A stretch of DNA of 64,000 bases from a virus (lineage: Duplodnaviria > Caudoviricetes). The stretch is taken from the IMG/VR virus record IMGVR_UViG_3300014208_000002, positions 96,001-160,000 of that record, one strand, 5' to 3'. Made by a program: the position numbers and the translations under genes. A model generated the notes under the pieces. The model saw only the letters and a program-made list of their open reading frames with translations, made no database searches and was not told where the DNA came from. Positions 4,667 to 16,527 of the stretch are shown here, piece after piece (within the stretch, counting starts at the first letter, position 1; the number at the start of each line of letters is the position of its first letter).

Positions 4667-4690
4667 TTTAAGACTTCCTTTCATAAACTT

Positions 4691-4778
4691 CGGAGAGTGA
4701 AGGATTTGAACCTTCGGGAAGCTTTCGCCTCCTACGGTTTAGCAAACCGTTGTCATCGACCAACTCGACCAACTCTCC
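4691..4778 (-). tRNA. tRNA-Ser(GCT)
   Basis: Cloverleaf; anticodon arm ACGGT-TTGCTAA-ACCGT; long variable arm; G73. Confidence 0.93.
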
Positions 4779-4786
4779 ATAGTAAA

Positions 4787-4815
4787 ATTATACAAATAAA
4801 AATCAATACTGTCAA
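4787..4815 (-). promoter_or_regulatory. Sigma70-like promoter for tRNA-Ser/rtcB
   Basis: Consensus TTGACA-17 nt-TATAAT. Confidence 0.8.
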
Positions 4816-4826
4816 TTTTTATTTTA

Positions 4827-4902
4827 TGACCCTGGAGGGAATCGAACCCCCGACCTGAAAATTAGAAGTTTCCTGCTCTAAATCCAACTGAGCTACAGGG
4901 CC
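4827..4902 (-). tRNA. tRNA-Arg(TCT)
   Basis: GGAAA-CTTCTAA-TTTTC anticodon arm; T-loop TTCGATT. Confidence 0.93.
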
Positions 4903-5011
4903 GGATATTACAAATTAAACAAAATGACTTAAAGCATCCTCATCAATAAACCAACCAATACTATTTAATAATTCTGCATGATATTTAGTAATCCCCCTAT
5001 TTACTAACTTA

Positions 5012-5740
5012 TCAATGTCTACAGAATATTTCACCTTTAGTCGGAAGTAATTCATTTTTCAGTGAATCATTTCCCGTCAATTCCATAAAGCGAGGAAGAG
5101 ACTCACACCAATCACAGAATGCGCCCCAATCGCCTTTTAATTTGTGTTGCCGCCTCTGCTTAAAAATCGTCTTTAGTTGCAAATAATTTGTAGTTACTGT
5201 CATCCACTTTTCAAAGCCCATAGGGAGATTAGAAACACATTCCATGAAGGATTTATAAATTCTATCAGATTGTTCTTTTGGAGTAAACTTAGTGCGCTCC
5301 TCAGAGTAATAATTTCCATCGTCCTCTGGCTTCATAGAAATAAGCTGATTATACCAGTCTATTCTCGAACTAATAAATGAAATAATTGTTGGACTAACAT
5401 ATTCATTAAACATTTCTTTGAATGCTACTGGGTCTTTTCCCATAGAAGTAAGCTTGTGCATTTTCGACTGGGAGGAAACAATTTGAGCGAAGTGATATCG
5501 CTGAAATTCAGGCGACCAGTATTCAGGATATTTAATATCAAAAGTAACAAGAATCCCTGAAAGGAAATTATCATGCCCGGAGCCTTGCGGTGCTTTACCG
5601 AGTTTATACCCACGATCTAATTCTTTATCAGAGGCACGAGAATAGCCAAGAGTATTTATTACGCCCACTGTCATAGGGTTTCCACTCGCAATAATAGCCC
5701 GATCCAGACCAGACACTTCCCAGTTCTTTACTTCAAGCAT
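5012..5740 (-). CDS. Divergent ThyX-like (flavin-dependent thymidylate synthase-like) protein
   Basis: GHDNFL, FQRYHF...SSQSKMH, LPMG and TTNYLQLKTIFKQRRQHKL..W..FC.W...LP resemble the phage ThyX-like family. The canonical RHRxxSxxxxSxR motif is altered. Confidence 0.55.
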   Translation of the reverse strand: MLEVKNWEVSGLDRAIIASGNPMTVGVINTLGYSRASDKELDRGYKLGKAPQGSGHDNFLSGILVTFDIKYPEYWSPEFQRYHFAQIVSSQSKMHKLTSMGKDPVAFKEMFNEYVSPTIISFISSRIDWYNQLISMKPEDDGNYYSEERTKFTPKEQSDRIYKSFMECVSNLPMGFEKWMTVTTNYLQLKTIFKQRRQHKLKGDWGAFCDWCESLPRFMELTGNDSLKNELLPTKGEIFCRH

Positions 5741-6053
5741 TTTCTTCCTCCCTATATTCTATATGCGGCCAATCTTTTTCATAAAGATTTAATTTCCATC
5801 CACAGCACGGACACTTAAAACTTTTTTGTGGAGGGTCAGTACAAAGAATAAGATTATCATTATTCTTTAAGGCATTTCCACAAAGAGTACAAGTAGGAAA
5901 TACTTTATAGGAATTTACTTTTACAGCCTTAATTGTAATTTTTTCCATTAAAAAATCTCCTTCATTAAAAATAATATTTACAGGTATACCCTTATAAACA
6001 CTAAAATCTTGAAAATAGGGGATTGTATTTCCTTCATGCGCTCGAAGCTTCAT
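5733..6053 (-). CDS. Hypothetical Zn-ribbon protein
   Basis: CTLC and CPCC motifs. Confidence 0.5.
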   Translation of the reverse strand: MKLRAHEGNTIPYFQDFSVYKGIPVNIIFNEGDFLMEKITIKAVKVNSYKVFPTCTLCGNALKNNDNLILCTDPPQKSFKCPCCGWKLNLYEKDWPHIEYREEENA

Positions 6054-6082
6054 ATTTGTTTTCCTTTATAAGAATAAAGCTT

Positions 6083-6174
6083 CGGAAACAGAAGGATTTG
6101 AACCCTCGAATCGACTCTTCGCCGATTTCCATATTTCAAGTATGGCGCATTCAACCGGACTCTGCCATGTTTCC
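6083..6174 (-). tRNA. tRNA-Ser(TGA)
   Basis: CCATA-CTTGAAA-TATGG; long variable arm; G73. Confidence 0.93.
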
Positions 6175-6441
6175 TTGTTGTCTATGATAGTAATTTTTTC
6201 TATACTCCTTATCATATTTTCTTCCTTTACCCCTATTTTTACTTTTAAAAGTATCTTATTATAAACCCTATTTTTCAAATTTGCAAGTACAAATTTTCAT
6301 TTCATCCATTCCTGGGCCAATTAACATTCCACCCCATTTACTACAAAAATGCCAGTGATTTTTAATTTCCTCTTCAGAAAGCTTTATCCTACCAGTAGTT
6401 ATGTCATGATATCGTTCAACATCATCTAAAAGGCTATCCAT

Positions 6442-6639
6442 TTAATTTGTCTCCTCTAAATCCTCATTATAAAATCTCAAAACAATCTTAGGTTTGGACA
6501 ATGCCACATGATAAATACGAGAATGATTAGGACTCGGCATTATTAAAACTATTCTCCCAACCCTATTATTATAAATACCCGAATTTTTTATTCTTACTTT
6601 ACTACCTATTTTTAATACTTGAGAAAGCATTGCCTCCAT
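6442..6639 (-). CDS. Small hypothetical protein (SH3/KOW-like)
   Basis: The start MEAMLSQ follows SD AGGAG; the longer track ORF overlaps tRNA-His. Confidence 0.45.
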   Translation of the reverse strand: MEAMLSQVLKIGSKVRIKNSGIYNNRVGRIVLIMPSPNHSRIYHVALSKPKIVLRFYNEDLEETN

Positions 6640-6669
6640 ATATTTTCTCCTTAAAAATTTTTTACATTT

Positions 6670-6742
6670 GGTGATCGGTGGGATTTGAACCCACGACCAG
6701 AAGTTCCACAAACTTCCGCTCTACCAACTGAGCTACGACCAC
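6670..6742 (-). tRNA. tRNA-His(GTG), no encoded G-1
   Basis: GAAGT-TTGTGGA-ACTTC; C73; the base at position -1 is T. Confidence 0.92.
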
Positions 6743-6744
6743 AA

Positions 6745-6826
6745 TGCAAGCGAGAGGACTCGAACCTCCACATCTTTCGATACGGCGGCCTAAACGCCGG
6801 GCGGCTCCCAATTACGCCACGCTTGC
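6745..6826 (-). tRNA. tRNA-Leu(TAG)
   Basis: CGGCG-TTTAGGC-CGCCG; variable arm; A73. Confidence 0.92.
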
Positions 6827-6831
6827 AAATG

Positions 6832-7305
6832 TTAATGAAAGAAAAAAGGAATCCTCCTACCTCGGGTTAAATGAACCCATTTATTTTCTTGTTTCTCCAT
6901 AAGGAAAAACTTGTCTACTTCTACATTGAAAAAAGGCTCATGCTTTGTGTAAATTGTATCTTTATAATCTACAGGAGAATTTATTATATCTTTCATACGG
7001 CAAAAAAGCAAGGTATTTATTAAAGAATTAAACATAATAAATAATTCAGCTTTTGATTCTGCTTTACGATAGGGAATATCTACAGTTGAATATCCTTGCC
7101 ACTCTCCTTGTTTTGTCCATACCTTTTTAATTTCTACTTCAACAGGGATTGTTTTATTATTCTTCTCCACTAAAAAATCCCAATCTTTATAAGCCTCTTT
7201 AGATGACAATAATTTGTACCCAAATTGTTCAAATAATAACTTACTTTCATTTATAGCCTTTTGATTATTTTCTTTGTATAGTTTTTTATCAAAAGGTTTA
7301 TACAC
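6832..7305 (-). CDS. Putative PD-(D/E)XK-fold nuclease
   Basis: WDFLVEK...VEVEIKK pattern. Confidence 0.45.
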   Translation of the reverse strand: MYKPFDKKLYKENNQKAINESKLLFEQFGYKLLSSKEAYKDWDFLVEKNNKTIPVEVEIKKVWTKQGEWQGYSTVDIPYRKAESKAELFIMFNSLINTLLFCRMKDIINSPVDYKDTIYTKHEPFFNVEVDKFFLMEKQENKWVHLTRGRRIPFFFH

Positions 7306-7476
7306 TTATTTTCCTGTTCTTAGTATTGCATCAGGAAAAAACGCTTTCATCATTTCTTCCTCTGTTCTACCTTCTAGGGGAAAATTCTTGTATGCCTTTT
7401 TACAAAATATACAATTTTCCACTGGGGATGTTGGATCAAAATTACACCAAGGATGATGAGTTTTTGGAAAATCCAT
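7306..7476 (-). CDS. Small hypothetical protein (56 aa, Cys/His)
   Basis: SD AAGGAG then MDFPKTHHPWCNF...; hand translated. Confidence 0.45.
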   Translation of the reverse strand: MDFPKTHHPWCNFDPTSPVENCIFCKKAYKNFPLEGRTEEEMMKAFFPDAILRTGK

Positions 7477-7491
7477 TTTATACTCCTTTTA

Positions 7492-7560
7492 TAGCAGGGG
7501 TAGGTTACGATCCTACTAAGAAAGGCTTATGAGACCTTCCCGCTTCCAAAGCTCCCTGCT
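7492..7560 (-). tRNA. Non-canonical 69-nt tRNA with CAT anticodon
   Basis: AGCAGGG/CCCTGCT acceptor stem; CTCATAA loop; GTAGG-ATCGTAA-CCTAC T arm; 3-nt D loop. Confidence 0.75.
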
Positions 7561-7569
7561 ATGAAATCC

Positions 7570-7644
7570 TGGAGCGTGTCGGATTTGAACCGACCGAAAT
7601 CTTCCTTGCAAAAGAAGCGACCACGCCAAGCAGTCCCACGCCCC
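7570..7644 (-). tRNA. tRNA-Ala(TGC)
   Basis: CTTCT-TTTGCAA-GGAAG; G3-U70 pair; A73. Confidence 0.9.
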
Positions 7645-7677
7645 AATATTTAATACTAATGCTAAAAATAGAATCTG

Positions 7678-8436
7678 TCAACTATATTTTTTATTCCACT
7701 CTTCGATTCTTTTTAAAAGTTCTTCATAAGTAATAGAAGACTTACTTCCTTTGGATGAATTCTCACTATGTAATAGTAATTTACAATTAGCTGGATGTTT
7801 TATTATTTTTGGATCAATCTTTTTTTCATAACCCTCTTTTACTGAAAACTGATGATCTCTGGAAACACCATATAAATTATTACCGTGATTAGAGGCGGAA
7901 TACCAACCATATTTTTCTATTAAAGAAAAATTAAACTCCTCTGAATATTTTTTTATACTGAAAGTAAATCTGCATTGATTACGATAAGAAATTAGGGAAT
8001 CATTCTTTTTTATCCTATTTTCTTGTAAACAAAGATCAGAACAATATTTTCTTTTTCCAATAAACTTATTACCACAATTTAAACAAACTTTTTCTTTTCT
8101 TGATTCAGGAAGTAATAAACCTCCTTTTATTCTGTTTTCATAAGCATCTTTTATCTTTTGTTTTGTTTTCTCATTCATTTCTCTTTTGTTGGCACAAGAC
8201 CTACTACAAAATAAATGTTTTTTCTTTCTCCAACTTGCTTCTGTCAAGGTAAGTTCAAAGATATTTCCACAACCCTCACAAGAAAGAATTTTAGTTATAT
8301 GTTTAGACATGGCTGATTGTCTAAGTCGTTCATAGCCTTCTTTAGAAAAAGGCTCTTTTTTATGCTTCCAACGAATATGATTCGCCCAAATTTTACCATT
8401 TTCAGTTAAAAAATTACATTCTTTACAAAGATACAT
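7678..8436 (-). CDS. HNH-type homing endonuclease with N-terminal Zn-finger repeats
   Basis: CxxC repeats, FCSRSC, C-terminal SRDH...HPANCKLLLHSENSSK. Confidence 0.7.
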   Translation of the reverse strand: MYLCKECNFLTENGKIWANHIRWKHKKEPFSKEGYERLRQSAMSKHITKILSCEGCGNIFELTLTEASWRKKKHLFCSRSCANKREMNEKTKQKIKDAYENRIKGGLLLPESRKEKVCLNCGNKFIGKRKYCSDLCLQENRIKKNDSLISYRNQCRFTFSIKKYSEEFNFSLIEKYGWYSASNHGNNLYGVSRDHQFSVKEGYEKKIDPKIIKHPANCKLLLHSENSSKGSKSSITYEELLKRIEEWNKKYS

Positions 8437-8514
8437 AAACTACTCTCCTACCTTTATTAGTAGGTGGAGTTTAAAAAACTCGGACTATAATTATTGTGAA
8501 TACTCCATAAAAAT

Positions 8515-8670
8515 AAAAAGCATAGAAACATTCTTTGGAAAAGCGGCAAACTTTCCACAAATACGCTCGGGGTAGCTTTTGCCGTCCAATACAGCTAATC
8601 ACTCTGTTGTTCCCCTAACCAAGCCTTTGGATCGACCTCGAAGAATGTTTCCTAGTCGTTCGATGCTTTA
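8515..8670 (-). ncRNA. Unidentified structured RNA (about 155 nt)
   Basis: Closing helices AAAGCAT/ATGCTTT and GAAACATTCTT/AAGAATGTTTC; possible 7-bp pseudoknot CGGCAAA/TTTGCCG. Confidence 0.5.
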
Positions 8671-8701
8671 ATCTAACTTTAATATACTATAAATCTATTA
8701 A

Positions 8702-9097
8702 TTATTCTATGTCTATAGTAGGAATAATTACTGAGGGTTTGAATATAATCCTATATTGTGCTGTAGAGATATTTCTTGGATGAATTTGTTCAGCAAAATA
8801 CGTTACATTATCAGATAATCCAAGAAAATGCTTTAGATAAGTTCCATCCTCAGTTTTTACTGTAAGCTCCAATTGATTCTCAATTTCATCAGGTTCTATT
8901 GAACAATAGCCTTCAACCACTAAAATATAAGCGCCGGTAATACCATTATAAAATACTACCCTACGAAATACTTCAAACTGATCTGCGGCGGTAGAGATGT
9001 TATAAGAGGCTATTGCCGCATCTGATTGACATTGAGTTGTAGACACTAACATTAGCAAACTTAGAATGACCAAAATAGAAATAATAATCTTCTTCAT
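8702..9097 (-). CDS. Exported/lipoprotein-like phage protein
   Basis: The start MKKIIISIL follows SD AGGAG; signal-peptide-like N-terminus with Cys. Confidence 0.6.
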   Translation of the reverse strand: MKKIIISILVILSLLMLVSTTQCQSDAAIASYNISTAADQFEVFRRVVFYNGITGAYILVVEGYCSIEPDEIENQLELTVKTEDGTYLKHFLGLSDNVTYFAEQIHPRNISTAQYRIIFKPSVIIPTIDIE

Positions 9098-9107
9098 ATT
9101 CTCTCCT

Positions 9108-9326
9108 TTATCCATCTTTGTACTGATGATTTCGATATCTCTTCCAACATCTAAAATCACCTACTTTATCATTTACATAAGTAAAAATTCTTTTTTGGTG
9201 TCTACCATCAAAACCTGAATAACCACATCCAAAATACTCATTATAATTATTTGGAATAATGAGATCTTTAATTTTCCATTCTCGATAAGATAAAAAAGAC
9301 TCCTGAATATCTTCGGCGTAGTACAT
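9108..9326 (-). CDS. Hypothetical protein
   Basis: SD GGAGG before MYYAED. Confidence 0.5.
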   Translation of the reverse strand: MYYAEDIQESFLSYREWKIKDLIIPNNYNEYFGCGYSGFDGRHQKRIFTYVNDKVGDFRCWKRYRNHQYKDG

Positions 9327-9372
9327 TGTGTACCTCCACCTAATGAAACTTCATAGTACCTCCTTATTTTTA

Positions 9373-9445
9373 CGCCCCTGGCCGGTGCCGACCCGACTAT
9401 CTCCGCAGTGACAGTGCGGCGACTCTGCTGTTTGTCTTCAGAGGC
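9373..9445 (-). tRNA. tRNA-Asp(GTC), non-canonical D and T loops
   Basis: CCGCA-CTGTCAC-TGCGG; acceptor GCCTCTG/CAGGGGC with G73; T loop GTCGGCA. Confidence 0.8.
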
Positions 9446-9449
9446 AAAA

Positions 9450-9695
9450 AATAGGCGCTGAAAATCCTAATCTGCCGACTAGGTAAACACTTACTTTTGG
9501 GATAAATCCCTCAGTACGCCGTGTGTTCTTTATTTTTCGGCTCTTTATCTCGTTGACTACCTTACTAGGGCAGAGCCGGGTGGGATTAAATCCTCCCAAT
9601 TTGCAACGCTGGTCATTATCCATCATACCAGATTCGGCGGACTAATTAACCCCTATCCAAATCCGGGGATTCGTTTAACGATACGAATATCGAGT
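9450..9695 (-). ncRNA. Unidentified structured RNA between tRNA-Tyr and tRNA-Asp
   Basis: GC-enriched with no convincing ORF; long-range helix TAGTCCGCCGA/TCGGCAGATTA plus several hairpins. Confidence 0.45.
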
Positions 9696-9698
9696 AAG

Positions 9699-9780
9699 TG
9701 GGTAGAGTAGGACTTGAACCTACGGTGTTTCTATGTGGGGCGTTTACAGCGCCTTGCCTTCGCCACTGGGCTACCTACCC
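9699..9780 (-). tRNA. tRNA-Tyr(GTA)
   Basis: GGCG-CTGTAAA-CGCC; variable arm; A73. Confidence 0.92.
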
Positions 9781-9999
9781 AAGAAAATAGAATCTATAAA
9801 AAGAAGAGTGCTGGTCTTCTCTTTATTTTTGTACTCCAGTCTGATTCAAATGCTGGCCGGTTTTACCCTGTTGTGTTTTTAACAATCAAACACACTTAAA
9901 AACGGGATAGATTACATTAACGCCCCCAACCTCCAAAATGGCGGGTTGAATACAGTAACCAACTGCCGCTTTTTTAGGATAAGCAGTAAATCCAGCTAT

Positions 10000-10072
10000 C
10001 GTCTCCAGTAGGTACTGCCCCTACCTCCACGGATTAACAGTCCGTACCCTCACTATGACGGGCCTTGGAGAC
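10000..10072 (-). tRNA. tRNA-Asn(GTT), non-canonical D and T loops
   Basis: ACGGA-CTGTTAA-TCCGT; GTCTCCA/TGGAGAC with G73; T loop GGCAGTA. Confidence 0.78.
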
Positions 10073-10263
10073 ACTTTCAAAGAACACGAGCGGTTATCAC
10101 CCAAGGTTTCCCCTGGTAGACTCCACATTGACACAGGGGAAACTATGAAGCCCCTGTTTTATGTCAAGTACGCTCTAGCCTCTATGTGCGCTTCTAAAAC
10201 TATAACCTTCTATAGTAAACCTTCTACCGACACGCAGGGTCAGTACGCACTAAGATTTATTTA

Positions 10264-10336
10264 TACGGGCTATAGGGCTTGAACCTATGACCTGAGCCAT
10301 GTAAAGACCCCGCTCTCCCAACTGAGCTAAACCCGC
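10264..10336 (-). tRNA. tRNA-Val(TAC)
   Basis: GGGTC-TTTACAT-GGCTC; canonical D and T arms. Confidence 0.9.
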
Positions 10337-10533
10337 ATAAAAGAGTGGATGGAAGTTTCCTTCCGCCTCCAGATGCCCGATCAAAGAATCCTTCTACGGC
10401 TTTATCCACTCACCAGTTTTTATATATCCTACTGTCATCGAATTGATCGCCTGATAAGGCTACGGAGCGATGAAACTCCTTCACAATTCCAGTAGATGCC
10501 ATTGCCGCAAGACTGGCTACGGTTGGTCTTTTC

Positions 10534-10607
10534 TAACCTCTTTGGGATTTGAACCCAATATGAATAGCTCCTTAAAACTATTCACTTCCCCATCCAGAAT
10601 AAAGGCT
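10534..10607 (-). ncRNA. tRNA-like element with extended anticodon arm
   Basis: AGCCTTT/AGAGGTT acceptor stem; canonical T arm TTGGG-TTCAAAT-CCCAA; 7-9-bp central stem; variable region of 2 nt or less. Confidence 0.55.
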
Positions 10608-10631
10608 GTTCCAAAACTCACTCTATACATT

Positions 10632-10660
10632 ATTATACCTGATCTTCTTCAAGGAGTCAA
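10632..10660 (-). promoter_or_regulatory. Sigma70-like promoter of the RNA cluster
   Basis: TTGACT-17 nt-TATAAT. Confidence 0.75.
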
Positions 10661-10823
10661 GTTTTTATTTCTTCTGTACCAATATTTTTTTCTACATATT
10701 CCCTAAGAAAAAGATTGACAAGTTGATTTAATGTAATGTCCCTTTTGTGGGCTTCAAACATAAGGGAGAAGAGAGCTTCATTTGGCAAGTCAATTTCAAT
10801 CTCTTCCATAATTTTTCTCCAAA

Positions 10824-10894
10824 AGCTCCCTTGGTGAGTCGAACACCAGTCTGAAGATTACAAGTCTACGGTAATACCGTTATACTAAGGGAGC
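10824..10894 (-). tRNA. tRNA-Thr(TGT)
   Basis: GTAGA-CTTGTAA-TCTTC; T loop TTCGACT. Confidence 0.9.
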
Positions 10895-10901
10895 AAATAT
10901 T

Positions 10902-11207
10902 CTAATCTAAAAATAACATTTCCTCTAACCTTTCTTTAGTAAGAAGCCCGATATGCCTTGCTTTCTCTTTTCCTCCTTTGAATACAATAAATGTAGGAAC
11001 CGAAGTTATCTGATACTCATTTTTTAGTAGCGAATTATTTATTGCATCCACCTTAGAGAATAGAACTGAATTATATTCCTTTTCCCATTCCAGCATCAAA
11101 GGTTCCATTTTCTTACACGGCGCACAAGTATGAGAATAAAAATCTACTACTGCTACAGTATCCTTATATATTGTAGTGCTAAATGTCTCATCTGTCAACT
11201 CTAACAT
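10902..11207 (-). CDS. trxA: Thioredoxin
   Basis: VVDFYSHTCAPCKKM (CxxC) and ITSVPT cis-Pro motif. The real start is MLELTDE; the track extension overlaps tRNA-Pro. Confidence 0.9.
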   Translation of the reverse strand: MLELTDETFSTTIYKDTVAVVDFYSHTCAPCKKMEPLMLEWEKEYNSVLFSKVDAINNSLLKNEYQITSVPTFIVFKGGKEKARHIGLLTKERLEEMLFLD

Positions 11208-11221
11208 TGTTTTTTTCTCCT

Positions 11222-11298
11222 TCTGTCTGGTAGGATTTGAACCTACGATGAATACTTGCTCCCAAAGCAAGCGGTTTCGACCTCTCACCCACAGACAG
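11222..11298 (-). tRNA. tRNA-Pro(TGG)
   Basis: CTTGC-TTTGGGA-GCAAG; C1-G72; A73. Confidence 0.9.
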
Positions 11299-11321
11299 TT
11301 ATATCTAAAATACTTAGTAGA

Positions 11322-11753
11322 TTATTTCTTCCAAGGTGGATTAGAAATAGGTGGATTAGAAAATAGATTTTCTTCAGCATAGTCTTTAGAAAATTTCTCT
11401 AACCATTTACGATACTTTATATAGTCCTTCTTTGAGAGAAAGAGATACACACCCTCATTTCTAATTTCCCAAGCATTGAAAGTATTTTGGGTATAGGGAT
11501 TATAATAACAAAGTGTGCTATCCGAAGAAAGTCTAATATATTTATCTTTTAGTTCTACCAAACTTAAAACTATGCCTTGAGCATCTTCAAGAGTTCCATT
11601 TGCCCAAGAATCATTTTTAATTTCAGATAGATGTAAAGTATAAGAAAAATTATTTACTCGGATTTTTACTAATTTGTTAGAAAGAATCCCAACTGCTATA
11701 AATAGCACTATCACAGATATACAAATTATAATATACTTCATATTCGCCTCCAA
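11322..11753 (-). CDS. Hypothetical membrane-anchored protein
   Basis: N-terminal hydrophobic helix. Confidence 0.55.
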   Translation of the reverse strand: MEANMKYIIICISVIVLFIAVGILSNKLVKIRVNNFSYTLHLSEIKNDSWANGTLEDAQGIVLSLVELKDKYIRLSSDSTLCYYNPYTQNTFNAWEIRNEGVYLFLSKKDYIKYRKWLEKFSKDYAEENLFSNPPISNPPWKK

Positions 11754-11761
11754 TAAAATTT

Positions 11762-12430
11762 CTACAACGGAAATTTAGATTCCGTAACAATAACCTTATC
11801 CTTTAGTATCGTCTCTCCTTTCACTAACCAAGATGTTCCAAAAGCATAAAGCATTATTGTCTCAAAAAATACTATAGCTCCATTATCTCCTGAAACAAAT
11901 TTAACATAGATAACATCTAATATGCAACAGGCAAAAATAACTATTCCACAGATACGATATATAAGATTTCTCTTTTCTTTCTCGGATGTCATCGGCTTAT
12001 TCGGTGTCGTTTTTGTAAACAGAAAGAAAGAATTAAAAGCCAAGGTAAGAAAAAATGTTCCTGCGCTAATCAAATGTATCATATTAGAAACTGCTGGATT
12101 CAATTGAAATATGCTAACCTTATCCCAAATTGTCGGGTCAAGCCTACAGGGAAATAATGCTATTCCAACTGCTGAAATAGATAAAATCCAAGACACTGCC
12201 CTATCTATTTTATCATATCCGCCGTAAGTAGACATGAACAAGCCCACACAAACAAGCAACCCAACAAAAAAGTCCCGAACATTAGTATGATAATAAGCAC
12301 TAATTGAGCCTTGAAGTTCTAATCCCCCAAAGAGCATCCCAAAGGCAACACACACTGTTGGTAGGAGTATCCCCAATATTCCAATCATTTTCCGAAGAGT
12401 AAGATAAGAAACTGAATATCTATCACCCAT
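11762..12430 (-). CDS. Multi-pass membrane protein (DUF998-like)
   Basis: About six hydrophobic segments; SISAYYHT motif. Confidence 0.6.
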   Translation of the reverse strand: MGDRYSVSYLTLRKMIGILGILLPTVCVAFGMLFGGLELQGSISAYYHTNVRDFFVGLLVCVGLFMSTYGGYDKIDRAVSWILSISAVGIALFPCRLDPTIWDKVSIFQLNPAVSNMIHLISAGTFFLTLAFNSFFLFTKTTPNKPMTSEKEKRNLIYRICGIVIFACCILDVIYVKFVSGDNGAIVFFETIMLYAFGTSWLVKGETILKDKVIVTESKFPL

Positions 12431-12448
12431 AACTTTCTCCTATTTAAT

Positions 12449-12685
12449 TTACTTGATATATTTATTTAATACTCTTGTAAGCTCTTCAGCGGTTTGAATT
12501 CGCTCGCTGAAAAGAATACTTCTGTCTTCTCTCACTGAACAAAAAACATCTGTATATTCATTATAGTATTCTATTTTTATAATAGTAGGTCCATTCAACA
12601 GCGTAATAAATTTTCCATCATTACCAATAGATTCTACGGAAAATCTATCATACGGAATTGCCCCGAGAAAATCTTCTAATAACAT
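12449..12685 (-). CDS. Hypothetical protein
   Basis: 78-aa ORF in operon. Confidence 0.45.
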   Translation of the reverse strand: MLLEDFLGAIPYDRFSVESIGNDGKFITLLNGPTIIKIEYYNEYTDVFCSVREDRSILFSERIQTAEELTRVLNKYIK

Positions 12686-13010
12686 AATACTTTTTACCTC
12701 ATAAATTCTTTTATTCTATATTTAGTTTAAAAACAACATAAAAAATAAGCTCTGCAAAAACACTAATAGCAATTCCACCTACAAATATTAAAATATACAC
12801 TAAAAACATATTTTTCTCCTCTTGAAAGAATTAGCTTTTGATAAAACCAAAAGCTATTTTCTAAAAAGCCAATGAAAAAAAGAAAAAATGAGAGTTATAG
12901 TGAATAAAAATCCTTGAGTTATTACAAAGTAAAACCCAAACCAATTAAGCCAGTCCCATGTACTTGTGTCCATAGTATTTTAGTAGGCAAAATAGAAAAA
13001 TCTTTACTTT

Positions 13011-13334
13011 CTATTCTTCGTCTTCTTTCCTTTCTCTGCTTATGTCATAACTACAGTCAATAAAAATTAACTCACATGCAGGAGGGAGATTAAAATAAAA
13101 AGATTGCCCCGATAATTCTACTGAAAATTCAGTAGAAGTTTTTGTCCCTGCTTCTTTTATCAAGTGAACAAACTCTTTAGCACCTTCCTCTGTTTTAAAA
13201 AAGAATTCTCTTCCAATATCTACAGACTTACCCTCTTTATCATAATAGCAAATGTCTAATGTTACCCTATAAAAAATTACTTTCGTAAACACTTTAATTT
13301 CTTCTGTTCCTTTTACTTTTCCAAAAATACCCAT
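13011..13334 (-). CDS. Hypothetical protein
   Basis: SD GGAGG; 107 aa. Confidence 0.55.
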   Translation of the reverse strand: MGIFGKVKGTEEIKVFTKVIFYRVTLDICYYDKEGKSVDIGREFFFKTEEGAKEFVHLIKEAGTKTSTEFSVELSGQSFYFNLPPACELIFIDCSYDISRERKEDEE

Positions 13335-13362
13335 CTTATTCCTCCTTAAAATTAAATCCTTA

Positions 13363-13447
13363 AAACCGGGACGGGACTTGAACCCGCATAGGTAAATACC
13401 CTTTACTGTTTTGCAGACAGCCTCCTAGCCAATTCGGACACCCGGTT
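13363..13447 (-). tRNA. tRNA-Cys(GCA) with long variable arm
   Basis: GCTGT-CTGCAAA-ACAGT; U73; 17-nt variable region. Confidence 0.88.
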
Positions 13448-13814
13448 ATGATTCGCCCCTTAATGCTTCAAGAATTCTTTTAACTTCCTCTAACTCTTTT
13501 TCTTTACCGGAATAATAACGCTCTAATAGAACCTTTTTTCTTTCTAATTCTCTGGTTTTAATTTTTATTATAGTTTCTTCCACCCTATCTGTTTGATCTA
13601 CGATTTCAGATATCTCTGCACTTAAAATAACCAACTTTGCAGTAGGAATATCAGGATACATATTTTTCCATCGAGTAATTTGAGAAAGAGCTTGTCCCTT
13701 CTTAATCCAAATTTTACCTTTTTCAAGTTCATCTACCCAATGCTTTCCACCCCCACCATAACCAGTAGAGCGAAGATATTTTCCGTCAGCGGATTGAACC
13801 ATATATAGAAACAT
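13446..13814 (-). CDS. Hypothetical protein
   Basis: SD AGGAG; 122 aa with C-terminal coiled coil. Confidence 0.55.
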   Translation of the reverse strand: MFLYMVQSADGKYLRSTGYGGGGKHWVDELEKGKIWIKKGQALSQITRWKNMYPDIPTAKLVILSAEISEIVDQTDRVEETIIKIKTRELERKKVLLERYYSGKEKELEEVKRILEALRGES

Positions 13815-13941
13815 ATTTATTCTCCTTTTATTTTCCTAAAGACCGTCGCCGATAAAAGTCCCATCGGTAATCACCCTCGGCAAGGCCCCTTGGGAAAAAT
13901 CATCATAACATACCTCCTTTATTTTTTAATTTCTGAAAAAG

Positions 13942-14019
13942 AGCGGATAGTGGGATTTGAACCCACGATGATATCCTACTTGGAAGGCAGGTGCAATCGA
14001 CCAACTATGCGATATCCGC
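13942..14019 (-). tRNA. tRNA-Gly(TCC)
   Basis: CCTGC-CTTCCAA-GTAGG; U73. Confidence 0.92.
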
Positions 14020-14028
14020 ATGAAAACT

Positions 14029-14100
14029 TGGGGAGGGGTGGACTCGAACCACCGAAGACGGATTTTCAGTCCGTTGCTTTACCTGTTAGGCTACATCCCC
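14029..14100 (-). tRNA. tRNA-Phe(GAA)
   Basis: ACGGA-CTGAAAA-TCCGT. Confidence 0.93.
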
Positions 14101-14118
14101 ATTTACTTTTATGAACCT

Positions 14119-14191
14119 TGCGAGGTCGAGGAGTTGAACCTCGGACATCCACCTTATCAGAGTGGCGCTCTACCAACTGAGCTAACCTCGC
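14119..14191 (-). tRNA. tRNA-Ile(GAT)
   Basis: CCACT-CTGATAA-GGTGG. Confidence 0.93.
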
Positions 14192-14198
14192 ATAAAAA

Positions 14199-14370
14199 GG
14201 AAGCATAGCACGCTGAGGTCAATTGCTTTCGCAATTTTCTATGGGATATTAAAGGGTCATGACTCCCTTCATAATTTTCCCTTCCCAATCTCACTACATA
14301 TGGTGTCTAGAACATAGTAGATTATTGACTGCTCAATCGTCCAAACTTAACTGGACGAGTCTATGCTTCC
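14199..14370 (-). ncRNA. Unidentified multi-stem RNA (172 nt)
   Basis: Perfect 10-bp closing stem GGAAGCATAG/CTATGCTTCC enclosing four hairpins, one with a GAAA tetraloop. Confidence 0.55.
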
Positions 14371-14450
14371 ATTTATTTTAGTAGTCATTATTCCCTCATG
14401 TTCACGGTGTTCATGCAACCGTGAACAGGGGGAATTTCGTGAACAATTAC

Positions 14451-14978
14451 CTACCGAGAAACATTCAGCTTCGGAACATTCAAAGGAAGTGGCGAATCAG
14501 AATAAATGTAACTTGCCCCTGCCCCTGCCCATTCTACTGCTATCCCCTCTGCGGTAAAGAAACGAATTCCAGGATTATTGTCTCCATAGGTTCCATCAAT
14601 ATCGGGAGCGGAAATTACTTCATAAGTAGCAGACAGTTCACTTCCATTCGTTGAATAAAGCTTTGTGTATGCTTCCTCCGGCATAAGATACGACCGAGTG
14701 CTTGCGGGCTTTCCATCTGCTACATAATATCCAATAATGTTTCCAAAGGAAATCAAATAGACATAAGTAACAATCGACGGCTTATCCCAACGCTCTGCCC
14801 ACTTTGCGATAGTGCGCTTTTCCTGAAAATAGGAAACTTCAGGAATAGGAACTATTGTCGCCGCCCTTTCTGCCATTGCACTCTGAGCTTTCTGTGCAAC
14901 TTGCCTAGCATTATCCGCTACCTCACAAGAGGAAAAAATTACAGAAAACAAAATCGCAAGAAAAATAAAACGCTTCAT
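14451..14978 (-). CDS. Putative lipoprotein
   Basis: Lipobox-like FSSC after a hydrophobic signal. Confidence 0.65.
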   Translation of the reverse strand: MKRFIFLAILFSVIFSSCEVADNARQVAQKAQSAMAERAATIVPIPEVSYFQEKRTIAKWAERWDKPSIVTYVYLISFGNIIGYYVADGKPASTRSYLMPEEAYTKLYSTNGSELSATYEVISAPDIDGTYGDNNPGIRFFTAEGIAVEWAGAGASYIYSDSPLPLNVPKLNVSR

Positions 14979-14982
14979 TTAG

Positions 14983-15360
14983 TTACTCCCTTCCGAGTTC
15001 AATTTGATAAGGAAGGTCATCTGCCTTCCACAAGTTCCGAGTAATCATCCTAGACTTAGAATTATACTCGGCAATAGCCCGATTAAGAACCATTGACATT
15101 CCAGGACGCTCGGACGCATCAGGAGGAAGAACCTCTATATTTGCCTCCTGTGCCTGAATCTGATTGTACTGGTCATAGAACCATTCATAGTTCTGAATGA
15201 CCGCCTTTGCATTTACCGTCTTCGTTATGAGCGAAAACGGAAAAATGTTTGCGAAGAAACTGATGACAAGATAGACAGCAACGATACCGAGAAAAATCCC
15301 AATACCCTTTGTCCACTTCTTACCAACTTCTTCCTCCAGCAAATCCCGAAACTCTCCCAT
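14983..15360 (-). CDS. Membrane-anchored protein
   Basis: Single TM helix; 4 nt from the lipoprotein gene. Confidence 0.6.
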   Translation of the reverse strand: MGEFRDLLEEEVGKKWTKGIGIFLGIVAVYLVISFFANIFPFSLITKTVNAKAVIQNYEWFYDQYNQIQAQEANIEVLPPDASERPGMSMVLNRAIAEYNSKSRMITRNLWKADDLPYQIELGRE

Positions 15361-15694
15361 TTACTGAGCCTCCTTATGCGTTTCCTGAAACCAACGAATT
15401 GATACATCAATAGTCTGCGCTACCTGTGAACGCATTCCTTCTCCACCTTTAAGAAGTAACGCTGAATGAATTTCTTGAGTAAACTTATCTATAAGTTCTT
15501 GATAGGTATAATCAGCAAGTTCTTTCATTTAACACTCCTTAACGCTTTCTTGAGAACAAAGCGATTGACTATTATCTCTCTACTCGGATTTGAGAGAGTG
15601 ATAGTTACTTCATCCCAACGACCACCTTTAGAAATTGTTATACTATTTTCGTAATCTGAGTTATTTGAATCATAAATAGCATCTATTAAAGTTT

Positions 15695-16216
15695 TCATTT
15701 TACTTTTCCTTTATGACAATTATACCATCCCCAGCAATCATCTCTATTCTTCTTGGCACACTCGGAAAGAGAGCCGCCCAAGTTTAGAAAATCTTTACAA
15801 GGCCCATGGTCTTTTAACCACTCACCAATCTTTGATCCCTGCTCGAAGTGTTGCAAGGGACAGTGAAGATCATAGATAGGAAGAGGAGACTTTCCTTTCT
15901 TCCATTCAGAATAGGAAACGCCGCCTTGGGAAAACTTAATTTCTCTGCTTGGATTTTCTTCATCCGCTTCAGTAGTAACATCTTCATCCGTAATACACAT
16001 TCCAGCGGAAGTTTTATAAACTCTCTTTACGCCTTTCTTATTTTTTCGTTCGATGAATTTAGTATAAGTATGCTTGATATGCTCTTTGCCTGTGCCTTTA
16101 CAAGTATAGCATATTACTGCCGCCTTACCTTTTTCGGCAAATCCTTGATAAAGTCCAGTACCACCACAGGAAGTACATTCTACATCGGCTTCCCAAATAA
16201 TCTTTTCCTTCGGCAT
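15695..16216 (-). CDS. Protein with a DnaJ-type Zn finger
   Basis: CTSCGGTG and CYTCKGTG repeats. Confidence 0.6.
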   Translation of the reverse strand: MPKEKIIWEADVECTSCGGTGLYQGFAEKGKAAVICYTCKGTGKEHIKHTYTKFIERKNKKGVKRVYKTSAGMCITDEDVTTEADEENPSREIKFSQGGVSYSEWKKGKSPLPIYDLHCPLQHFEQGSKIGEWLKDHGPCKDFLNLGGSLSECAKKNRDDCWGWYNCHKGKVK

Positions 16217-16226
16217 TTTAATCCTC

Positions 16227-16406
16227 CTAATTCTTTAAGCCATAGTATACAAGACCACAACTAGGACAAACGTTGAGTTCATCGGTCACAACGGTTATTC
16301 TTCTTACTGCATCAGAAGCATAATCATCACCATAATTTGAACAAACTTCAGTTACAATTTTAATTATCTTAAACTCCCCTACAAAATTACAGGATTTACA
16401 AATCAT
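16227..16406 (-). CDS. Small Zn-ribbon protein
   Basis: SD GGAGG; CKSC...CPSC. Confidence 0.45.
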   Translation of the reverse strand: MICKSCNFVGEFKIIKIVTEVCSNYGDDYASDAVRRITVVTDELNVCPSCGLVYYGLKN

Positions 16407-16431
16407 TTTAATCCTCCTTATATTCAAAAAA

Positions 16432-16514
16432 TGGCACTGATGGGAATCGAACCCATACGCTCATAGAGCGAGACATTTTAAGTGTCTTGTGGCTACCAAT
16501 TACACCACAGTGCC
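16432..16514 (-). tRNA. tRNA-Leu(TAA)
   Basis: AGACA-CTTAAAA-TGTCT; variable arm. Confidence 0.93.
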
Positions 16515-16527
16515 AAGAAAATATTTT

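Follow-up and report, generated by a model that had tools for sequence, protein, structure and literature searches.

A compact 69-nucleotide tRNA(CAU) gene of a groundwater phage belongs to a widespread family of phage tRNAs with initiator-like features

Genes for tRNA-Met are common in phages and are routinely annotated there. Elongator tRNAs normally carry a strong pair between positions 1 and 72, and the initiator tRNAs of eukaryotes and archaea have an A1-U72 pair together with A54, A58 and A60. In mammalian mitochondria a single tRNA-Met serves both initiation and elongation. Within the T loop of tRNAs in general, U54 and A58 are the usual sites of methylation. Among the determinants recognized by the bacterial methionyl-tRNA transformylase, an unpaired 1:72 is the major one and A73, G2-C71, C3-G70 and G4-C69 are minor ones (PMC9976931). 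tRNA-Pyl and mitochondrial tRNA-Ser(UCN) share a compact geometry in which a single base links the acceptor and D stems, the D loop is small, the anticodon stem has 6 bp and the variable loop has 3 nt (PMC7609411). tRNA-Pyl has the anticodon CUA and possesses neither G18/G19 nor the U54-U55-C56 motif (PMC7609411).

The window considered here is the whole 64,000-nt stretch of DNA that was analysed. It comes from groundwater metagenomes and covers bases 96001-160000 of a complete viral record, which is 200,726 bp long, has direct terminal repeats and shows a GC content of 34.7%. Read on the minus strand, window positions 7492-7560 form a 69-nt cloverleaf with the anticodon CAU, that is, a methionine-anticodon tRNA gene, in which tRNA position i corresponds to window position 7561-i (A1 at 7560, A73 at 7492). 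The acceptor stem consists of seven pairs including A1-U72 (5′ strand 7554-7560, 3′ strand 7493-7499), and a single A (A8, 7553) precedes the D arm (7542-7552), which has a 4-bp stem and a loop of three bases (U, G, G; 7546-7548) and is followed by one G (G26, 7541). The anticodon arm (7520-7540) carries the loop C32-U33-C34-A35-U36-A37-A38 (7527-7533, anticodon 7529-7531) on five core pairs, to which a possible G.U and a possible G-C would add up to a stem of at most seven. A 3-nt variable loop (7517-7519) leads to the T arm (7500-7516), with a 5-bp stem and the loop A54-U55-C56-G57-U58-A59-A60 (7505-7511); A73 is present (7492) and the CCA end is not encoded. This minus-strand reading agrees exactly with the segments, the A1-U72 pair and the A54/U58 T loop that had been listed in the preliminary description of the locus.

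Several lines of evidence identify the element as a tRNA gene. ARAGORN calls a tRNA-Met(CAU) at 7491-7561, the extra base on each side being no more than a chance T/A complement, and the minimum-energy fold is the same cloverleaf (-28.4 kcal/mol, z = -3.1), with only one of 200 shuffled sequences folding as well. A contig from a second, independent groundwater study spans 7195-7772 with zero differences, so the tRNA sequence there is identical; among public sequencing runs, no RNA dataset was listed as carrying it. The Rfam tRNA model RF00005 gave no match to 7492-7560, either at its gathering threshold or at E ≤ 10. Together with the fit to the family model described below, the locus is a real methionine-anticodon tRNA gene and a member of a family of compact phage tRNAs.

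Among the genes of the phage record are those for a terminase, a DnaB-type helicase, a ribonucleotide reductase and RtcB. Default ARAGORN finds 20 tRNA genes in the 200.7-kb genome, 19 of which fall within the window at 4690-20890, all on its minus strand; with non-canonical Asp, Asn and Glu candidates added under relaxed settings, the cluster (4690-21519, minus strand) comprises about 23 tRNA genes in all. Nearly every amino acid has one tRNA in the set, in most cases with U34, and 7492-7560 is the only tRNA of the genome with a CAU anticodon. A tRNA-Ala(UGC) gene on the same strand (7569-7645 by ARAGORN; 34.8 bits with the Rfam tRNA model at 7570-7644) lies about 8 nt upstream, and the two genes are probably co-transcribed. 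Just upstream of tRNA-Ala is a sigma-70-like promoter match (7653-7681, minus strand) with a perfect -35 hexamer, a 17-nt spacer and 10 of 12 positions overall, a consensus match only, as the total of such matches in the region is not above that in shuffles. On the other side, a 56-aa ORF (7306-7476, minus strand) preceded by a purine-rich ribosome-binding site begins 16 nt downstream of tRNA(CAU) and marks the 3′ limit of the intergenic tRNA pair. A long-variable-arm tRNA-Tyr, Shine-Dalgarno sites and sigma-70-like promoters all point to a bacterial setting, and the ORFs of the window read through under the standard code. The phage genome, when searched, was found to encode no transformylase, deformylase or TilS, so those of the host must be used. 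It does hold a separate UAU-anticodon tRNA that could cover AUA codons (17144-17225, minus strand); this gene is 82 nt long with a long class II-like variable arm, which is unusual for such an identity. Searches for synteny by way of the neighbouring RtcB and of the terminase returned few relatives, none of which has tRNAs nearby.

The preliminary description had likened the geometry to that of tRNA-Pyl, and in its short linker, its small D loop, the added length of its anticodon stem and its variable loop of 3 nt the tRNA does match the four features of the published definition (PMC7609411). However, tRNA(CAU) differs from tRNA-Pyl in its anticodon and in having the two D-loop guanosines (G18/G19) as well as U55 and C56, and nothing links it to pyrrolysine. 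As G18/G19 and their T-loop partners are kept, the closer likeness is to mammalian mitochondrial tRNA-Ser(UCN), a type I mt-tRNA with the same geometry in which these elements are retained (PMC7609411). The mitochondrial tRNA differs in anticodon, amino acid and evolutionary origin, the compact tRNAs being found in bacterial viruses, and unlike it the phage family looks, from its sequences, to be derived from an initiator tRNA. The geometry of tRNA-Pyl and mt-tRNA-Ser(UCN) has here arisen in a third setting.

The compact form is not confined to one genome. A pattern-based scan of viral contigs, seeded from relatives of 7492-7560, specified an initiator-like acceptor start, the following A-G, two D-loop guanosines, the anticodon loop and the same spacing, while leaving free positions 1, 72 and 73 and the entire 3′ half including the T loop. 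It returned at least 80 viral loci, and among the matches listed 57 contain a complete cloverleaf arranged in the same way; the contigs scanned carry at least 48 distinct CAU tRNAs of 69 nt with this layout, that of the window included. The compact phage tRNAs are thus a widespread family, defined by a length of 69-70 nt, a single A linker, a 4-bp D stem, a loop of three to four bases with two guanosines, a variable loop of 3-4 nt and a covarying sixth anticodon-stem pair, all of which are found in 7492-7560. A scan without acceptor constraints gave mostly canonical initiator tRNAs and few new compact members among the matches listed. The same phage loci yielded 514 distinct tRNAs with anticodons other than CAU, and just one of them has a 5′ core as short as this; compaction therefore goes with the CAU anticodon. 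The architecture had been put forward as unusual, and the compact layout is indeed real, yet it is no isolated oddity but the shared form of a large family of phage CAU tRNAs, and the homologues examined fold in the same compact way rather than canonically.

Members of the family are also found in cultured phages. When two family members were used as blastn queries, the same form was recovered from the Bacillus subtilis Herelleviridae phages Goe3, BSP36, BSP38 and about 15 more, where the compact tRNAs of the three named phages are annotated merely as tRNA-Met. These tRNAs (in vB_BsuM-Goe3, KY368640, 32240-32307) share the compact layout and the initiator-like acceptor stem, and differ from 7492-7560 in the pair U1-A72, in a D loop of four bases and in a T loop that is canonical (U54/A58). 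Blastn of 7492-7560 itself against 50,697 cultured phage genomes gave partial matches at chance level only. The tRNA-Met genes of PA5oct-like and T5-like phages, reached by blastn with two further members, are of canonical length and were set aside as not compact.

The common fold is supported by compensatory change. In an alignment of 51 members, 92.9% of the cells in the proposed helices can pair compared with 66.5% in shuffled alignments, none of 500 of which reaches the observed value; 17 of the 23 pairs change on both sides, all four helices covary, and the covariation score is 0.71 against 0.19, with every slid control collapsing. RNAalifold, run independently, arrived at the same compact cloverleaf, in which the anticodon stem has 6 bp and 1:72 stays open. 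A8 and the two D-loop guanosines are invariant. The sixth anticodon-stem pair (columns 23:41) forms in 43 of the 51 members and uses five standard pair types (CG 14, AU 12, UA 7, GC 5 and GU 5, with 8 unpaired), 7492-7560 having G.U. The 7-bp anticodon stem suggested previously can form in 7492-7560, but the conserved part amounts to six pairs, as the seventh forms in only 26 of the 51 and is not a family feature. A covariance model was built from 41 members of other viral contigs with canonical T loops, leaving out 7492-7560 and every member with A54. Run on the window, it matches 7492-7560 over its full length and with no insertions or deletions (68.4 bits, E = 6e-17), the next best match scoring 32 bits, and the Goe3 and BSP36 tRNAs, which were also left out, score 75.7 and 74.7 bits.

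The T loop of 7492-7560 departs from the rest of the phage's tRNAs, as all 19 others called by ARAGORN have U54/A58. A census of positions 54 and 58 in 390 ARAGORN tRNAs, from 77 loci chosen regardless of T loop, gave U/A 366, A/A 10, A/U 9, G/G 3, U/U 1 and C/A 1. U58 is accompanied by A54 in nine of ten cases, which makes the swap a coupled exchange at both positions of the 54-58 pair. A54/U58 was found in this census on phage Met, Asp, Glu, Ile, Lys and Thr tRNAs, and A54/A58 loops likewise occur on non-Met tRNAs (Asp, Glu, Ile, Lys and Thr). A54/U58 is accordingly a recurrent minority T-loop type of phage tRNAs, at about 2%, and A54 is no initiator mark in phages; the preliminary description had cited A54 together with A1-U72 as a mark of eukaryotic initiators. 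Within the compact family it is seen in 8 of 51 aligned members, the rest being canonical, and the swap is independent of compaction. From the sequence, the swap would remove the usual methylation targets U54 and A58 while U55 and C56 are kept, so that the elbow contacts can still form. The likeness of 7492-7560 to the eukaryotic cytoplasmic initiator, which extends to A1-U72, A54 and A60, is probably convergent, because A54 loops occur in non-initiator phage tRNAs; 7492-7560 also differs in having U58 rather than (m1)A, in missing the third G-C pair, in its compact core and in its bacterial setting.

A link between A54/U58 and CAU tRNAs in particular was considered and rejected. The first scan, with the CAU loop and T arm of 7492-7560 as its pattern, found 63 viral loci, mostly canonical-length CAU tRNAs with G1-C72, but CAU was part of that pattern and the census shows other identities. 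The same T arm with CAU was found, among 185,579 prokaryote species genomes, only in 13 Patescibacteria metagenome-assembled genomes, as canonical 74-nt tRNAs with G1-C72 next to an initiator gene. The compact pattern was found in none of 401 Patescibacteria genomes searched, and a Patescibacteria link was rejected on these two grounds. The contigs concerned (L067-L079) carry a conserved chromosomal pair of CAU tRNAs, one being the 74-nt tRNA with G1-C72 and the A54/U58 T arm and its partner an initiator with an A1xA72 mismatch and G at T-loop position 55. Three viral contigs (L038, L066 and L120) have A54 T loops on several tRNAs (Asn, Asp, Glu, Gln, Ile, Leu, Lys and Gly), and the occurrence of such loops on several identities in one phage implies that an altered elbow can be a trait of a whole tRNA set. 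On viral contig L087, ARAGORN calls a CUA-anticodon tRNA of the amber suppressor type, with an A54/U58-type T loop, beside a compact CAU tRNA.

Compared with bacterial tRNA-fMet (for example E. coli metZ/metY), 7492-7560 has CAU in the same 7-base loop, A73, G2-C71, C3-G70, a G-rich 5′ acceptor strand, G29-C41 and G30-C40, and a weak or absent 1:72 pair is seen across the compact family. The bacterial tRNA is about 77 nt long as against 69 nt, and it has U8 and a second linker base where the compact tRNA has A8 as its single linker; the 3-base D loop, the anticodon stem of 6-7 bp and the 3-nt variable loop also set the compact tRNA apart. Further differences specific to 7492-7560 are A1-U72 in place of C1xA72, C11-G24, U.G at 31-39 and the A54/U58 T loop. 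The initiator features are thereby only partly present. A1-U72 is a weak Watson-Crick pair, not an unpaired 1:72. Two of the three initiator G-C pairs are kept (29-41 and 30-40) next to U31.G39, which corrects the earlier statement that all three are absent. The elongator-type C11-G24 replaces the initiator purine 11:pyrimidine 24, and of the minor transformylase determinants A73, G2-C71 and C3-G70 are present while 4:69 is A-U.

Family-wide statistics are more consistently initiator-like. In the 51 aligned members, 1:72 is A-U in 14, U-A in 11, G.U in 3, G-C in one and a mismatch in 22, that is, weak or mismatched in 50. G2-C71, C3-G70 and A73 are retained in the alignment, although the constancy of G2 and C3 is not independent evidence, since both were set by the scan pattern. 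Among the matches listed, A73 is found in 38 of the 48 distinct 69-nt members, 30 of which encode CCA directly after it and so fix the register; at 30-40, 46 of the 48 have G-C or C-G, and the three loop-adjacent anticodon-stem pairs are all strong in nine and two of three in 27. A purine:pyrimidine pair at 11:24 (columns 10:19) occurs in 32 of the 51. The covariance model scores canonical initiator-type tRNAs, a set that includes a phage copy on contig L157, a Patescibacteria initiator and the PA5oct tRNA-Met, at 42-54 bits, whereas elongator-type CAU tRNAs reach 27-38 bits. On phage contig L157 a canonical initiator is accompanied by a compact copy whose acceptor stem is the same, and on contigs L041, L124 and L091 a compact copy stands beside a CAU tRNA with a strong 1:72 pair. 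On these sequence grounds the compact family is best read as a compact derivative of initiator tRNA. The canonical-length initiator of L157 lies at 11340-11411 and the compact 69-nt copy, which has an A54/U58 T loop, about 80 nt downstream at 11488-11556; the pair looks like a duplication caught between canonical and compact forms.

The identity of 7492-7560, which the preliminary description had left unclear between fMet, Met and lysidine-Ile, is less open in consequence, the 1:72 statistics of the family and the model scores pointing to an initiator-type tRNA-Met. We favour, with moderate confidence, the reading that it is a functional phage initiator-type tRNA-Met with a compact core. It would be transcribed together with the upstream tRNA-Ala and trimmed by host RNase P and 3′ nucleases, and its CCA end would be added by a host enzyme, as the gene encodes none. 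Recognized through A73 and the CAU anticodon, it would be charged with methionine by host MetRS. The weak 1:72 pair (A-U), together with G2-C71, C3-G70 and A73, would be expected to make it a substrate of host transformylase, and its main use would lie in the initiation of phage proteins.

The alternative that deserves most attention, possible though rather unlikely, is an elongator or dual-use tRNA-Met that supplies AUG decoding in a nearly self-sufficient phage set. The tRNA itself gives it some ground and tells against initiator use: A1-U72 forms a Watson-Crick pair where the classical initiator has the C1xA72 mismatch, C-G at 11:24 is of the elongator type and only two of three initiator G-C pairs are present. 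A further consideration is one of supply, as this is the sole CAU tRNA in a 200.7-kb genome whose nearly complete set has one tRNA per almost every amino acid, mostly with U34; elongator Met is otherwise missing, which favours elongator or dual use. The compact body, moreover, resembles a mitochondrial tRNA type (PMC7609411). The family speaks differently, for a 1:72 mismatch in 22 of 51 members and G-C in one only are not expected of elongators, the covariance model ranks canonical initiators above elongator-type CAU tRNAs, and several phages have a separate CAU tRNA with a strong 1:72 beside the compact one. The same family-wide weakness of 1:72 and closeness to initiators do not fit an EF-Tu-dependent elongator of another kind, tRNA-Ile2, in which host TilS would convert C34 to lysidine so that AUA is read as isoleucine. 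Here the CAU anticodon with A37/A38 and A73 is compatible, and AUA codons should be frequent in so AT-rich a genome (34.7% GC); nevertheless the phage encodes no TilS and already has a UAU-anticodon tRNA, albeit one whose long variable arm leaves its identity open, and this assignment is highly improbable.

The failure of the Rfam tRNA model on 7492-7560 and the presence of several other odd or broken tRNA-like genes in the same phage would suit a non-translating tRNA-like RNA, whether a processing signal, a pseudogene in decay or a decoy for host defences directed at tRNAs. This is very unlikely given that all stems are perfect, that G18/G19, U55/C56, U33 and A37 are kept, that the covariance model fits at full length without insertions or deletions (68 bits) and that the identical sequence recurs in a second groundwater study; the compensatory changes throughout the family, in addition, indicate selection on the fold. 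Least probable by far is a relative of tRNA-Pyl or another recoding tRNA with a dedicated synthetase. The one linker base, small D loop, long anticodon stem and 3-nt variable loop are held in common, but the anticodon is CAU and not CUA, the tRNA retains G18/G19 and U55/C56 where tRNA-Pyl has neither, the family clearly resembles initiators and the window's ORFs use the standard code. A tRNA-Pyl identity as such is effectively refuted by the anticodon and the loop features.

A broader and more speculative reading, which as a whole we consider unlikely, is that phages have evolved a compact initiator tRNA of their own, in which a shortened body like that of mitochondrial tRNAs is joined to the acceptor stem and anticodon arm of an initiator. 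Such a tRNA would work with host MetRS, transformylase and ribosome while escaping host factors that read the standard D/T elbow, be they tRNA-directed defence nucleases or the enzymes of U54/A58 modification and quality control; the A54/U58 swap would carry this escape one step further. In genomes with a sole CAU tRNA, like the present one, it may serve both initiation and elongation by analogy with mammalian mitochondria.

A literature search, from which subscription journals were mostly absent, returned no paper dealing with the 69-nt compact form, with the A54/U58 loop or with initiator tRNAs of phages. Some members escape standard tools: Rfam fails on 7492-7560, and in 7 of the 57 loci among the matches listed the compact tRNA was overlooked by ARAGORN at default settings. 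Phage tRNA inventories and analyses of codon compensation will as a result undercount Met/fMet tRNAs. The family also provides dozens of natural variants for working out how a 3-base D loop builds the elbow, and since members are found in cultured Bacillus subtilis phages, expression, formylation and defence evasion are directly testable. Compact natural initiator tRNAs may further be useful as scaffolds for orthogonal initiation.

Other genes of the cluster, all on the minus strand, are irregular as well. The tRNA-Cys gene (13363-13447, 85 nt) also has an unusual long class II-like variable arm. A tRNA-Asp(GUC) candidate (9373-9445) has good stems, a G54/G58 T loop and a D loop without G-G; it is missed by default ARAGORN and by Rfam, and its G54/G58 loop recurs in tRNAs of other phages. 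A tRNA-Asn(GUU) candidate (10000-10072), found only in the mitochondrial mode of ARAGORN, has perfect stems, a T loop starting G-G-C and again a D loop without G-G. A tRNA-Glu(UUC)-like gene (21449-21519) is defective in the T arm and the 3′ acceptor strand and scores 26.7 bits with Rfam, below threshold. A further tRNA-like gene (10534-10607) has a canonical T arm and an 8-base anticodon loop, in which relaxed ARAGORN reads a four-base anticodon.

An ORF on the same strand (7678-8436) encodes a 252-aa zinc-finger/HNH-like protein, P0001 (phrog_23051, phrog_1271). The DNA for its C-terminal part has 67-70% identity to genes of Erwinia, Cronobacter and Serratia jumbo phages and of Lak megaphages. 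As the homologue in GAP32 is located between tRNA-Met genes, P0001 is probably a homing endonuclease carried along in tRNA clusters.
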